A stretch of DNA of 64,000 bases from Puniceicoccales bacterium. GTDB taxonomy: Bacteria; Verrucomicrobiota; Verrucomicrobiia; Opitutales; JAIRKQ01. A model generated the notes under the pieces. The model was not told where the DNA came from and did no database searches. It worked only from the letters and a program-made list of their open reading frames with translations. The translations under genes were made by a program, and so were the position numbers. Positions 136 to 5,463 of the stretch are shown here, one piece after another (within the stretch, counting starts at the first letter, position 1; the number at the start of each line of letters is the position of its first letter). The DNA lies in the NCBI GenBank assembly GCA_031269795.1, contig JAISYR010000022.1:13202-77201 (forward strand), in the 5' to 3' direction.

Positions 136-1230
136 TTATTTGTCCTGATTTTCTTCATCTTCTCCCTGTTGCTGATTGCCAAATCTCTCCCTGGAACGGC
201 CATCATTGTTCTGATTATCACTTGCACTTTGCCGTTCATGCTGCTCAATCTCAATGTCAATGCGGTCCACATCCCTAAGATTATTTTGCAACTGTCGCAT
301 TAAGGTATCGCTGTTTGCCCGCAGTAGATTTTCGGAGTCACTAGAGCCGGTAGAAAAGACAACACCCAACGATTTCCCTTCCTTGAAAATAGAAACTTCC
401 GTATCTTTTAGAATACCATCTTGCAATGTAATTCTTACTTCCTGTTTAGCATTTAGGGCTTCGTTAGTCGCTATAATTTTTTCTGCGACCTGTATCGCCA
501 GATTTTTTATAACTTGTGCCGGTTCATTGACCTTTGGTTCAATGTGTTGTAATTGTATGTTGTCCAAAATCTTTGTTCCACTTATCGCAGATGTATCTTT
601 TACTTCCGTAGCATCCACATCCTTCGATGAAAGATCTTGTTTCCGCGACTTTGCGTCGTTTACTGGCAACATGCCACTTGCCTGAGCATTGCCCGTTTGT
701 TTGGGTATTATGAAACCTTTTTGTATGAAATCCTTCGTCTCCTGGGATTCTGGCAGGGTTCCTGAACCTTTACTATTAAATCCGTGTTTCTGCGGATCTG
801 TTTTAGAGCTACCAAAATCGCTTCCTTGATAACCGTACTTATTTTCTGCGAGTTTTGTCCCCTGGGATTCTGGCAGGGTTCCCGAACCTTTACTATTAAA
901 TCCGTGTTTCTGCGGATCTGTTTTAGAGCTACCGAAATCGCTTCCTTGATAACCGTACTTATTTTCTGCAAGTTTTGTCCCCTGGGATTCTGAATTGGTT
1001 CTCGGACCATCGCCATCAAATCCGTATTTCCGAAGATCCGTTTTGGACCTATCGGAATCATTCTCCCGCTGACCGTACTTATTTTTCGTAAACTTTTCCG
1101 CAAAAAATGACACGTCACGGGGATCCGCTTTCTCTTTTATTTCAGCAATTTCTTTCTTGGAAATGACATCATCGTCAAATGAACCTCCACTTTCTTTTTT
1201 CATGGATTGATCCTTTATTTTATCTGTCAT
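136..1230 (-). CDS. sctP: T3SS needle-length ruler / substrate-switch candidate (SctP/YscP-like), 364 aa with internal 40-aa tandem repeats
   Basis: Lies directly downstream of sctN-sctO, in the canonical Ysc order J-K-L-N-O-P. The central region is G/S/K/Q-rich and repetitive. The C-terminal ~110 aa look globular (RITLQDGILKDTEVSIFKEGKSLGVVFSTGS...) and resemble a T3S4/FliK-C type domain by pattern only. Confidence 0.55.
   Translation of the reverse strand: MTDKIKDQSMKKESGGSFDDDVISKKEIAEIKEKADPRDVSFFAEKFTKNKYGQRENDSDRSKTDLRKYGFDGDGPRTNSESQGTKLAENKYGYQGSDFGSSKTDPQKHGFNSKGSGTLPESQGTKLAENKYGYQGSDFGSSKTDPQKHGFNSKGSGTLPESQETKDFIQKGFIIPKQTGNAQASGMLPVNDAKSRKQDLSSKDVDATEVKDTSAISGTKILDNIQLQHIEPKVNEPAQVIKNLAIQVAEKIIATNEALNAKQEVRITLQDGILKDTEVSIFKEGKSLGVVFSTGSSDSENLLRANSDTLMRQLQNNLRDVDRIDIEIEQHERQSASDNQNNDGRSRERFGNQQQGEDEENQDK
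741..1100. repeat. 3 x 120-bp head-to-tail tandem repeat inside the sctP-like gene
   Basis: Copy 1 (741-860) and copy 2 (861-980) differ at 3 positions (763/883, 814/934, 850/970). All three differences are synonymous; both copies encode TKLAENKYGYQGSDFGSSKTDPQKHGFNSKGSGTLPESQG. Copy 3 (981-1100) is collinear without indels but diverged. Confidence 0.95.
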
Positions 1231-1252
1231 AGTTATTCCCGGTTAAAATTTA

Positions 1253-1729
1253 TTATTCCTGTTCTTTTTTCTTAGCAAATTCTTCTAATTCCTTATCGGC
1301 AATAAGTTCTTCCTCTTTTATCGCTTCTTTTATCCATTCTTCTTTGTGTGATTCTATTTTTTCTACATTTTTATTTGCCTCTTGTAAAGCTTCTCTTTTC
1401 TCTTCCAGATTTTTTTCAGCTTTGACCAAATTATCCTGGGCTGCTATCAGGTTTTGTTCGTGTGTTATCAATTTACTTTTTAGAACCTTAATGGCATAGT
1501 GTAAGGCATCAACGGCTTCCTTTTTTACTTTTTGCATCATCACTTTTTTGTACAACCGTTCGGATTCCTTTTCAATAAACACTTTGAATTCTTCCAGTTT
1601 TTTCTTTGCCTCCTCCACATTTTCTTTTGCTTCTTCAACTAACCTTTGCGCTTGCTTTAGATTTTTTTCGGCAGCATCCTTGCGAAGATTTCTCACCCGC
1701 AACATTTCCTCTAAAATGTACTTTGCCAT
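1253..1729 (-). CDS. sctO: T3SS stalk protein SctO (YscO/FliJ-like coiled coil), 158 aa
   Basis: K/E-rich sequence that reads as all coiled coil. Its start overlaps the sctN stop (TAATG at 1727-1731). Position and size match YscO. Confidence 0.6.
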   Translation of the reverse strand: MAKYILEEMLRVRNLRKDAAEKNLKQAQRLVEEAKENVEEAKKKLEEFKVFIEKESERLYKKVMMQKVKKEAVDALHYAIKVLKSKLITHEQNLIAAQDNLVKAEKNLEEKREALQEANKNVEKIESHKEEWIKEAIKEEELIADKELEEFAKKKEQE

Positions 1730-3078
1730 TATAATCCAACAGCTTGTGCCATTTTATCTATCGTCGTTTTAAAATCGTCACGGTCATGTAATCCTTGTCG
1801 TAAAAAATTATTAACCGCTTCTATCCTATCAATCGCTTCATCGGTGACCTTATCAGCACCACGCTTATACTCTCCAATCCTAACCAATAATTCCACCTCC
1901 TGATATTTAGATAAAATTGTCCTCAATTTGGATGCAACCTTTCTATGCCGTTCATCCGTTATTTGATTAAAAACACGGCTAACACTCAATAGGACATCTA
2001 TGGCTGGATAATGATTCATCCCCGCCAATTTCCTTGATAGGATAATGTGACCGTCCAATATGGACCTTGTTTCATCCGCTATTGGTTCTGTCATATCATC
2101 TCCCTCTACGAGTACGGTATACAAAGCCGTAATCGATCCTTTTTCTGACTGGCCTGCCCGTTCCATTAATTTTGGTAGTGTTTCGAAAACAGATGGGGGA
2201 AATCCACGCCTGGTAGGAGGCTCTCCCGCTGCCAGTCCGATTTCACGTTGTGCACGGGCGAAACGGGTAATAGAATCCATCATAAGCAGCACTCTCTTTC
2301 CCTTATCTCTAAAATATTCGGCTATGGCAGTGGCAACATATGCTGCTTTTAGACGTTCCATCGATGACCTGTCGGAAGTAGAAATGACAAGGACGGACCG
2401 CTTTAGTCCTTCTTCGCCCAAATCTTTTTCCACAAACTCTCGTACTTCGCGGCCACGTTCCCCAACCAGTGCAAGGACGTTAATCTCCGCTTCAGTGTTC
2501 CTAATGATTTGCCCCAACAGCGTACTCTTACCTCCCCCCGCAGCAGCAAAAATACCCATCCTCTGACCTTCACCACATGTCAGTAACCCGTCGAGTGCCC
2601 GTACGCCCAATGCCAATGGCTTGTCGATGGGATTTCTCAACATTGCATTTGGCGGATCACTATAGACCGGATAAAAATCCGTAGTTTCAAGGGGGCCCTT
2701 TTTATCCCCGTCGATGGGACGGCCCAAACCATCTATTACCCTCCCGAGCAAATTATCTCCCACGGGAACCATATGAACCCTGCCGGTTGGAATTACCTCC
2801 GTGGTTGGTGAAACCCCACGAATATCCCCAATCGGGGTCAAAATTGTGGCCTGTTGAGAAAACCCTACCACTTCTGCTATTAATTCCTCTTCTTCCCAGG
2901 GGTTTTTTAGAAGGCATAGCTCCCCTATTTTGACGCCTGGGACAGACGCTTTTATGATCGTGCCAACAACTTGGATGACTCTTCCTTTGACCTGGATGAG
3001 AGCGGAGTCCTCTATCTCCCGCGCGAGATGTTCCGCTATGTATCCAAAGGGATTGTGGTTGTCCTGTTCCTTATCCAT
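1729..3078 (-). CDS. sctN: T3SS ATPase SctN (YscN/FliI family)
   Basis: 449 aa. Walker A is [15 protein letters not shown] and the Walker B region is [13 protein letters not shown]. The F1/FliI-like pattern runs through the whole protein ([23 protein letters not shown]). Confidence 0.95.
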
Positions 3079-3080
3079 GG

Positions 3081-4464: not shown

Positions 4465-4471
4465 TCCCTAC

Positions 4472-5371
4472 CTATTTTTCTTCCTGCGTAGTCTCTTCCG
4501 GTGTAGTCTCTGGCTCCTCGTCAAGGTCGCTAATATTTTGCACATCGTTTTGTACGACTACGGGGCTATTGGGAGCAGGTTTAGCAACTGCATTTGTCCT
4601 TCTATTCTTTCTGGATTCGAGGAAGAAAAATGCAGCAGCCCCTATGCTACATAGTAGTAACACACCAAGGATGATAACTATGGTCAGGAATTTTGCCGCC
4701 GCATCACTCGCCATTCGAAGACCTAAAACACTTACATTTGTATCAAAATTACCATCGGTTGTGATATTTTCTTCGGCTGCTACCGGAAACAGAGCAATTG
4801 ATACCCTATCGTAGTCCAAGCCCTGGACGCTATTTGCCACTAGATATTTGATTTCTCGTACCGATTCATCCAAACTCGAACCAACCCTATAGGTTAGAAA
4901 TATGGCAGCCGACGCTTCGGTATCTGCATCGGAATAGGGATCATTTTCCGGCAATACTATGTGAACACGGGATGTCAAGACTCCAGGAATTTTATTCAAC
5001 GTCGAAGCAACACTTTCCGACAAAGCATACATAAACCTTGCTTTTTCCTCTAGGGGAGAAGCTACCAACCCACTTTTCTGGAAAACTTGTCCTATAGTAT
5101 TATACTGGACCCTGGGGTAGCCATTGGTTTTTAAAATTTTCTCCGCCTTGGAAAATTCATCGGAGTTTTTCAGCACAATGGTCCACGCTAGCTCCAGACC
5201 AGGTTTTTTTACGACAGGAACGTGATGCTGTTGCATCAAAGAGACAATTTCATTCGCTTCCTCTTCCGGCAGATTTGACAACAAGTCAACTTTCCCACAG
5301 CCAGCTAGTGTCAGCATCATAAATAATGAAAAAAGCAGGCATAAATTTTTACAAAAACCATTCTTTTTCAT
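4472..5371 (-). CDS. sctJ: T3SS inner-membrane ring lipoprotein SctJ (YscJ/EscJ/PrgK family)
   Basis: Signal peptide plus lipobox (MKKNGFCKNLCLLFSLFMMLTLAGC), then the YscJ-type block DLLSNLPEEEANEIVSLMQQHHVPVVKK, and a C-terminal TM (FLTIVIILGVLLLCSIGAAAFFF). I trimmed the start from the ORF-track start at 5428 to the Met before the signal peptide. Confidence 0.9.
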   Translation of the reverse strand: MKKNGFCKNLCLLFSLFMMLTLAGCGKVDLLSNLPEEEANEIVSLMQQHHVPVVKKPGLELAWTIVLKNSDEFSKAEKILKTNGYPRVQYNTIGQVFQKSGLVASPLEEKARFMYALSESVASTLNKIPGVLTSRVHIVLPENDPYSDADTEASAAIFLTYRVGSSLDESVREIKYLVANSVQGLDYDRVSIALFPVAAEENITTDGNFDTNVSVLGLRMASDAAAKFLTIVIILGVLLLCSIGAAAFFFLESRKNRRTNAVAKPAPNSPVVVQNDVQNISDLDEEPETTPEETTQEEK

Positions 5372-5434
5372 AGTAAATCTTTCCACGTTTACCAACCCCT
5401 CTAGGTCGTCGTTATTCAAATAATTCACTTATAT

Positions 5435-5463
5435 ATTATGATCTTTCTTTGAAGACTAGTCAA
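5435..5463 (-). promoter_or_regulatory. Putative sigma70-type promoter of the sctJ operon
   Basis: The minus strand reads TTGACT, a 17-nt spacer, then CATAAT, about 65 nt upstream of the sctJ start. Called by eye only. Confidence 0.35.

Follow-up and report, generated by a model that had tools for sequence, protein, structure and literature searches.

A six-gene sctJ-K-L-N-O-P block in a termite-gut Puniceicoccales genome: a probable piece of a Ysc-like type III secretion locus that was broken up in this clade

What does a tightly packed block of six type III secretion system (T3SS) genes mean in a genome whose other T3SS genes are dispersed? This question is raised by a stretch of 64,000 nucleotides (nt) of contig JAISYR010000022.1 from a Puniceicoccales bacterium (assembly GCA_031269795.1), hereafter called the window, in which the genes sctJ, sctK, sctL, sctN, sctO and sctP occupy positions 136-5428. 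Our answer, which we consider probable, is that they form a functional-operon block of a verrucomicrobial Ysc-like T3SS, and that an ancestral contiguous locus was broken up in a Puniceicoccales/Opitutales clade living in termite guts.

The region contains six consecutive intact open reading frames (ORFs) on the minus strand, which are given here in the order sctJ to sctP with their lengths in amino acids (aa) and their scores against curated family models:

4472..5371, minus strand: sctJ, inner-membrane ring lipoprotein, 299 aa from the ATG at 5371 (TIGR02544, 190 bits, cut-off 162)
3778..4464 (start at 4464 or 4458), minus strand: sctK, sorting-platform linker, about 226-228 aa (Pfam YscK, 31 bits, cut-off 22)
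3081..3800, minus strand: sctL, stator (NF005392, 185 bits, cut-off 159; TIGR02499, 129 bits)
1729..3078, minus strand: sctN, T3SS ATPase, 449 aa (NF005391, 767 bits, cut-off 657; TIGR02546, 671 bits, cut-off 605)
1253..1729, minus strand: sctO, stalk, 158 aa (Pfam YscO, 69.9 bits)
136..1230, minus strand: sctP, needle-length ruler and substrate-specificity switch, 364 aa (Pfam HpaP, 40.9 bits; a weak TIGR02514 YscP domain)

The ORFs and the family models agree, which bears out the original prediction that a contiguous, tightly coupled block of six T3SS genes is present here, and the block is a genuine, intact part of a bacterial T3SS (injectisome). The Pfam scores for YscK, YscO and HpaP all exceed their cut-offs, the proteins are ordered K-L-N-O-P, and the HpaP/YscP-type domain is located at the C-terminus of SctP. 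SctN scores below the cut-off of every FliI model (clades 1-3), showing that it is of the SctN type and not a flagellar ATPase, and its top matches among solved structures are T3SS ATPases; the matches of SctJ in the Protein Data Bank are PrgK, MxiJ and EscJ. When SctJ is read from the ATG at 5371, its lipoprotein signal ends with the lipobox LAGC, and a comparison of the window with two related loci, L001 and L002, showed that this start and the region upstream of it are conserved; the ATG at 5371 is most likely the true start. The longest ORF of sctL begins at 3800, and when the starts were compared with the same two loci an ATG at 3770, which gives a protein of 229 aa, was found to be conserved and is probably the real one.

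The tight coupling of the genes that had been described earlier stands in part. The sctO start does overlap the sctN stop as TAATG. The 23-nt overlap of sctK and sctL, however, needs the upstream ATG of sctL, which is missing in the sister metagenome-assembled genome (MAG) L001, and with the conserved start at 3770 a spacer of 7 nt follows the sctK stop. The spacer between sctL and sctN is 2 nt, and the packing of the block is tight under either sctL start. The block is bounded by the following genes:

1..38, plus strand: 3' end (last 12 codons) of a convergent NUDIX hydrolase gene, the left boundary
5520..6764, minus strand: MFS transporter gene (Pfam MFS_1), unrelated to T3SS, the right boundary and the same neighbour as in L001 and L002

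The frame-3 translation of positions 1-38, IVKLLMIQGKRL*, agrees with the C-terminal end of the NUDIX proteins that adjoin sctP in L001 and L002. In these loci the convergent NUDIX gene downstream of sctP is followed by ACT, adenosine deaminase, IMPDH/GMP-reductase-family and GMP synthase genes. Hence, sctQ does not lie just beyond the left edge, where it had been expected, and the block consists of exactly six genes.

In which kind of bacterium does this block reside? The source is a termite-gut Puniceicoccales/Opitutales MAG with the locus-tag prefix LBS22, and not a chlamydia. The secretin SctC encoded elsewhere in the window is identical to LBS22_03775 (MDR1528672.1), which GenBank annotates as a Puniceicoccales MAG protein on a 110.5-kb contig. 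SctN loci were drawn from 185,579 species genomes and the best 80 of 591 matches were used; the closest of these come from termite-gut Puniceicoccales MAGs, with aa identities of 95, 95, 90 and 76%, and Chlamydiota are absent from this set of 80. Over 9-10 kb (within 1-11 kb of the window), housekeeping flanks included, L001 and L002 are collinear with it at 87-88% nucleotide identity. The verrucomicrobial rather than chlamydial background that had been proposed from the surrounding genes is thus supported by the collinear Puniceicoccales MAGs and by the annotation of SctC.

As had been proposed, SctN was also placed in a phylogeny, a neighbor-joining tree of 84 sequences (100 bootstraps) that holds no chlamydial references, and the termite Puniceicoccales clade (97% bootstrap) is nested in a Verrucomicrobiota clade (83%). 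Beyond the termite clade, the closest relatives of this SctN belong to Verrucomicrobiota/Kiritimatiellia (70-74% identity), and the other members of the Verrucomicrobiota clade that have more than a few kb of flanking DNA (L016, L022 and L028) have contiguous loci. The placement among all T3SS families was based on NCBIfam scores and nearest neighbors. The SctN model NF005391 is centered on classic Ysc ATPases, with scores of 854-867 bits for those of Vibrio, Photorhabdus, Aeromonas and Pseudomonas and 797 bits for Bordetella. Because SctN of the window also exceeds the cut-off of this model, and SctL passes the likewise Ysc-centered equivalog NF005392, the term Ysc-like is fair in a broad sense.

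The direct joining of J-K-L to N-O-P had been considered a distinctive arrangement, but it turns out to be the ordinary order. When the T3SS genes were mapped on the 80 SctN loci with reference proteins annotated in the Kiritimatiellia locus L007, SctJ and/or SctL was found directly upstream of SctN on the same strand in 59 of them. Locus L007 itself, from the rumen, has in one piece the order C..W-SycN-X-V-D-..-G-I-J-Y-K-L-N-O-P-Q-R-S-T-U, and a run J-(K)-L-N-O-...-R-S-T-U is present in Brevifollis (L028), Opitutaceae (L022) and Verrucomicrobiales, and also in Planctomycetota, Bordetella (L034), Achromobacter, other Burkholderiales and Desulfovibrionaceae. The only named genera that lack the J/L-N junction are Vibrio, Photorhabdus, Aeromonas and Pseudomonas, which have classic Ysc loci in which sctN begins a separate operon. 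In the flagellar fliFGHIJK genes, the homologous functions are ordered as ring, C-ring/linker, stator, ATPase, stalk and ruler. Since the J-K-L-N-O-P order is usual in the nearest SctN relatives and mirrors fliFGHIJK, the junction is the ancestral state and has no significance of its own; that it is unlike the one in Chlamydia is because Chlamydia is the rearranged one.

What does set this genome apart from its contiguous relatives is the dispersal of the genes. The T3SS genes of the window lie in three unlinked loci (136-5371, 44724-47077 and 61894-62616) with housekeeping genes in between, which confirms what had been noted earlier. The second and third loci contain the following genes:

44724..45191, plus strand: CesT-family class I chaperone, in a YscB-like position upstream of the secretin gene (Pfam CesT, 22.7 bits, cut-off 22)
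45191..47077, plus strand: sctC, T3SS outer-membrane secretin, 628 aa (TIGR02516, 332 bits, cut-off 238)
61894..62184, plus strand: sctF-like needle subunit, 96 aa (Pfam T3SS_needle_F, E=1.3e-4, 22.5 bits, under the cut-off of 29.4)
62185..62616, plus strand: TPR chaperone in the YscG position, 143 aa (weak matches to CdsG, SctY and LcrH, all under cut-off)

In Ysc systems, the chaperone YscB precedes YscC, and in the window the stop codon of the CesT-like chaperone overlaps the ATG of sctC. The match of SctC to the T3S N0 domain is slightly under the Pfam cut-off. The resemblance of the sctF-like protein to needle subunits is C-terminal, and in contiguous loci its weak tblastn homologues are directly flanked by sctD on one side and the TPR gene on the other. 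Homologues of the TPR protein are found directly upstream of sctI-sctJ in many contiguous loci, and its score against the chlamydial CdsG equivalog NF052304 is 36 bits, below the cut-off of 170. A tblastn search of the window with the proteins of a relative found none of SctQ, SctR, SctS, SctT, SctU, SctV, SctD, SctW and SctI, in agreement with the earlier statement that sctD/I/R/S/T/U/V/W lie outside it. The family-matching ORFs between the loci are housekeeping genes (RpoZ, SmpB, MurJ, MutL, MurC-MurB, MurG, PFK, AccA, Tgt, GlyRS, RecD2, FabV and others), and about ten intervening ORFs have no family match. Each piece may be transcribed from its own sigma-70-type promoter, and two candidates with a sigma-70-like sequence were noted:

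5435..5463, minus strand: promoter candidate TTGACT-17-CATAAT upstream of sctJ, 10 of 12 consensus matches
61838..61866, plus strand: promoter candidate TTGACA-17-TATGAT upstream of sctF, 11 of 12 consensus matches

The motif upstream of sctJ is conserved in L001 and L002, together with the entire intergenic region in which it lies.

The dispersal goes further than the original prediction supposed. In sister MAGs of the window's lineage, whose SctC is 84-86% identical to that of the window and whose guanine-plus-cytosine (GC) content is 41-43%, the genes for a 246-aa SpoA-like protein (Q'), SctQ and SctR form a further isolated piece, which is flanked by an rluA-like gene and by lgt/MFS/dxr and has no sctS after sctR. 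The Q-R/lgt junction recurs in JGI and Logan assemblies of different samples, and in eleven loci read from this clade, sctS-T-U never follows sctR. The window's own MAG appears to encode a full-length SctR, MDR1528609.1, which is 63 accession numbers away from SctC MDR1528672.1 and lies on a different contig of 87.6 kb; by accession matching, the SctR of the window's lineage falls within the group with 54-57% identity to the L081 seed. An alignment-based scan of metagenome contigs with 22 SctR proteins of the clade returned only distant relatives (at most 52% identity), none of them from the termite clade, the patterns being too general. A second termite Puniceicoccales sub-clade, whose SctN is 76-78% identical, is cut at other points, as follows (slashes mark the break points):

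rplS / N-O-P-Q'-Q-R / housekeeping genes
permease gene / N-O-P-Q'-Q-R
kdsA / O-P-Q'-Q-R
fabD / Q-R / gpsA

We therefore propose the following scenario, in which the block would be the operon for SctJ, SctK, SctL, SctN, SctO and SctP of a Ysc-like injectisome. An ancestor within the Verrucomicrobiota would have had one contiguous locus, C-D-E-F-G-I-J-K-L-N-O-P-Q-R-S-T-U, plus V and W, and rearrangements in the termite-gut Puniceicoccales/Opitutales would have split it into pieces that each retain the local ancestral order. The pieces known for the window's lineage would be J-K-L-N-O-P, (YscB-like)-C, F-G and Q'-Q-R, and the other core genes are expected elsewhere in the genome. The scattered genes would presumably still assemble into a single working injectisome.

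A system in this state might alternatively be a decaying remnant, in which the export apparatus proteins SctS, SctT, SctU and SctV have been lost and the surviving genes are becoming pseudogenes or are co-opted for other purposes. Such a remnant would agree with the absence of sctQ-R-S-T-U after sctP and of sctS-T-U after sctR in the eleven loci, with the failure to locate SctS, SctT, SctU, SctV and SctD, and with the small and reduced size reported for these genomes (PMC11257099). However, all six ORFs are intact in four genomes, those of the window, L001, L002 and L003. Moreover, the pairwise ratios of nonsynonymous to synonymous substitution rates (dN/dS) of the window versus L001 and L002, at a dS of 0.29-0.68, are 0.05-0.06 for sctN, 0.05-0.07 for sctO, 0.08-0.15 for sctL, 0.14-0.16 for sctK and sctJ and 0.25-0.29 for sctP, like those of five flanking housekeeping genes (0.04-0.21). 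The lineage has also retained SctC, SctF, the TPR chaperone, SctQ and SctR, and SctC is kept in at least nine MAGs at 81-100% identity. Because the dN/dS values resemble those of housekeeping neighbors, these comparisons argue strongly that the sct genes are maintained under purifying selection and are not decaying, and we consider a remnant unlikely.

The dispersal itself would have no biological meaning if chimeric contigs had fused T3SS fragments with housekeeping DNA during assembly or binning, and it should be noted that all sequences concerned are MAGs or metagenome contigs and that repeats such as those of sctP can break assemblies. Such an artefact is hardly credible, given that the MFS/sctJ and sctP/NUDIX junctions are present in three contigs that were assembled independently, of which L001 and L002 belong to MAGs with different names, that the Q-R/lgt junction is shared by the JGI and Logan assemblies mentioned above, and that a single contig of uniform GC content carries all three loci of the window. 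It is very improbable, too, that the six genes arrived on their own, apart from the rest of the sct genes, by horizontal transfer from a proteobacterium with a Ysc- or Bordetella-type system. Transfer of T3SS loci is frequent (PMC3459982), and SctN is 64-70% identical to proteobacterial SctN proteins; yet SctN groups with the Verrucomicrobiota and with no proteobacterial group, the GC content of the block equals that of the genome (0.39-0.45 versus 0.416 for the window, without a break in composition), and the flanks are conserved between species. The overlapping but differently cut pieces of the relatives, such as N-O-P-Q'-Q-R, fit the break-up of a single ancestral locus. We thus prefer the break-up of a verrucomicrobial Ysc-like locus, against which the following points weigh. 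Every genome involved is a MAG; SctR was assigned to the window's MAG by proximity of accession numbers and not by reading of the contig; SctS, SctT, SctU, SctV, SctD, SctI and SctW were not located for this lineage, so that the system may be incomplete; the identities of SctF and the TPR protein come from sub-threshold family matches plus synteny; the promoter candidates of sctJ and sctF are consensus matches whose frequency is not above that in shuffled sequence; and the neighbor-joining tree holds no SPI-1, SPI-2 or Hrp references in addition to lacking chlamydial ones.

Within the block, sctP differs among close relatives by a tandem repeat:

737..1085, minus strand: tandem repeat inside sctP, 120-nt (40-aa) unit, 2.9 copies (TRF, Tandem Repeats Finder)

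The same 120-nt unit is present in 7.0 copies in L001 (L001 10124-10953) and is unrepeated (1 copy) in L002, and SctP has 364 aa in the window, 522 aa in L001 and 288 aa in L002, in genomes that are about 88% identical. A different, unrelated repeat of 108 nt, in 3.5 copies, is found in sctP of L003 (L003 5280-5658). In Yersinia, the SctP-type protein acts as a molecular ruler, and if SctP does the same here, needle length should differ among close relatives.

Some observations on SctQ and SctR stand beside these results. The termite Puniceicoccales loci that were read all have a pair of neighboring genes for SctQ, both with a SpoA-like end (L169 8407-9999, L081 10001-11852, L084 7925-9989 and L086 8142-9672), an arrangement that recalls the split HrcQA/HrcQB of Pseudomonas syringae. 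The Q'-type proteins have no Pfam or NCBIfam match and were recognized by their position and their SpoA-like C-terminus; in L169 the downstream SctQ gene has an acidic, repetitive N-terminus. SctR is about 55% identical between the two termite sub-clades as compared with 76% for SctN, and hence this export-gate protein is diverging unusually fast relative to the ATPase. In L084, sctR too has a NUDIX gene downstream of it, which raised the possibility that Q'-Q-R was cut out of an original place between sctP and NUDIX; this was dropped, the two NUDIX proteins being non-orthologous (26% identity, E=0.006). The 1-kb gap after sctR in L084 contains no remnants of sctS or sctT.

Among the other features of the window, a MurC (N-terminal)-MurB (C-terminal) fusion of 718 aa (18711-20867, minus strand) adjoins MurG and fits a verrucomicrobial background, and a MurB/MurC fusion enzyme has been characterized in Verrucomicrobium spinosum (PMC4803751). 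Ordinary genes with value as taxonomic markers are those for class A RNase P RNA (36253-36622, plus strand, 205 bits), tRNA-Ser(CGA) (12500-12588, minus strand) and tRNA-Leu(CAG) (17759-17843, minus strand). Three tandem paralogues of 346-356 aa (28606-32146, minus strand) share 57-68% identity, match no Pfam family and lack an obvious signal peptide, and an unmatched ORF of 419 aa lies beyond them at 32327-33586; to see candidate effectors or surface proteins in the unmatched ORFs at 28606-33586 would be pure speculation. Two adjacent paralogues of 359 and 373 aa (9857-12197, minus strand), which are 48% identical, have weak matches to autotransporter beta-domains. A second secretin of 712 aa (54651-56789, plus strand), with a match to Pfam Secretin only and 22% identity to SctC, is flanked by genes for a family-5 solute-binding protein and a ComM/Mg-chelatase-like protein, with no type II secretion system (T2SS) or pilus genes alongside; in the sister MAG L169, a T2SS-F platform gene lies close to the Q-R locus.

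What might this system mean for its bearers? The accession series suggests that these MAGs come from the collection of termite-gut MAGs of Mies et al. 2024. The termite Opitutales families LL51 and UBA9783 have small genomes of low GC content and are putative endosymbionts of flagellates, including 'Candidatus Nucleococcus' (PMC11257099); we infer that the window belongs to one of these two families and that the bacteria are protist-associated symbionts. The word 'secretion' is absent from the paper that describes these termite MAGs (PMC11257099), and a literature search returned no report of a T3SS for Puniceicoccales or termite Verrucomicrobia. The earlier view that T3SS biology is barely explored in Verrucomicrobia is nevertheless somewhat overstated, as T3SS-dependent pathogenicity of Verrucomicrobium spinosum is cited in PMC3681970. 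A wider reading, whose chances we judge to be evenly balanced, is that the whole small-genome, probably protist-endosymbiotic termite Opitutales/Puniceicoccales clade, 'Candidatus Nucleococcus' included, may keep a working Ysc-like injectisome as promoter-bearing mini-operons, broken up independently of the Chlamydiae, with graded break points, a split SctQ and an SctP that varies by 40-aa repeats. If so, the clade would be a natural experiment on why T3SS genes cluster and on what frees obligate symbionts from this, and the T3SS would be a likely tool of termite-flagellate-associated Opitutales for interacting with their hosts. As sister lineages are at different stages of break-up, they would permit testing whether operons fall apart once a lineage is restricted to its host and has lost dedicated regulation.

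How does the termite system compare with known systems? It resembles the Ysc family (Yersinia Ysc, Pseudomonas Psc, Bordetella Bsc and Desulfovibrionales) in its YscK, YscO and HpaP/YscP domains, its T3SS-type secretin and the local orders chaperone-C, F-G, J-K-L and N-O-P, and its J-K-L-N-O-P junction is that of Bordetella-type and verrucomicrobial loci. It differs from this family in being divided into at least four pieces among housekeeping genes, instead of forming one locus or being carried on a virulence plasmid, in its host, a termite-gut verrucomicrobium, and in the splitting of SctQ into two SpoA-like genes in the sister MAGs. YscX, YscY, SycN and TyeA were not seen in the window, which is the part of this lineage's DNA that was read for them, whereas the Kiritimatiellia relative with locus L007 has this gatekeeper module of YscX/YscY and SycN/TyeA. 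The contiguous loci of Verrucomicrobiota/Kiritimatiellia (L028, L022 and L007) share the J-K-L-N-O-P order but run on into Q-R-S-T-U, and extend upstream to C, D, V and W. The flagellar fliFGHIJK genes have the same functional order, but flagellar genes are missing from the window, which does encode a secretin and a needle subunit.

The dispersal had also been said to be reminiscent of Chlamydiae, and the organization is indeed shared with the chlamydial Cds system, whose core genes occupy a number of loci set among housekeeping genes, in a host that likewise belongs to the Planctomycetes-Verrucomicrobia-Chlamydiae (PVC) superphylum, has a small genome and is probably associated with eukaryotic cells; this is a likeness of organization and not evidence of membership. 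The orders in Chlamydia are J-K-L-R-S-T (CT559-564) and N-O-P-Q (CT669-672), whereas the termite pieces are J-K-L-N-O-P and Q'-Q-R, with S-T not after R. The chlamydial 'pathogenicity archipelago' comprises four clusters (bioRxiv 10.64898/2026.05.06.723290), and the chlamydial secretin has been described as T2SS-like by Abby and Rocha (PMC3459982), whereas the termite SctC passes the T3SS model. The differences in break points, secretin type and nearest SctN relatives indicate that the fragmentation is, as judged from gene order and sequence, convergent with that of the Chlamydiae, and independent rather than shared. Scattered injectisome genes have been reported for all Chlamydiales, for Hamiltonella defensa and for one Yersinia plasmid (PMC3459982); the lineage-specific break-up of a verrucomicrobial Ysc-like T3SS is thus an instance of a known phenomenon, although apparently one that has not been described. 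Abby and Rocha suggested that in Chlamydia selection for clustering may be weakened because dedicated regulation is lacking (PMC3459982), and it is a reasonable hypothesis, by analogy, that this may apply to the termite clade as well. If verified, the termite clade would provide the second independent case of a scattered injectisome in the PVC superphylum, and this one would go back to a Ysc-like ancestor whose locus was contiguous.

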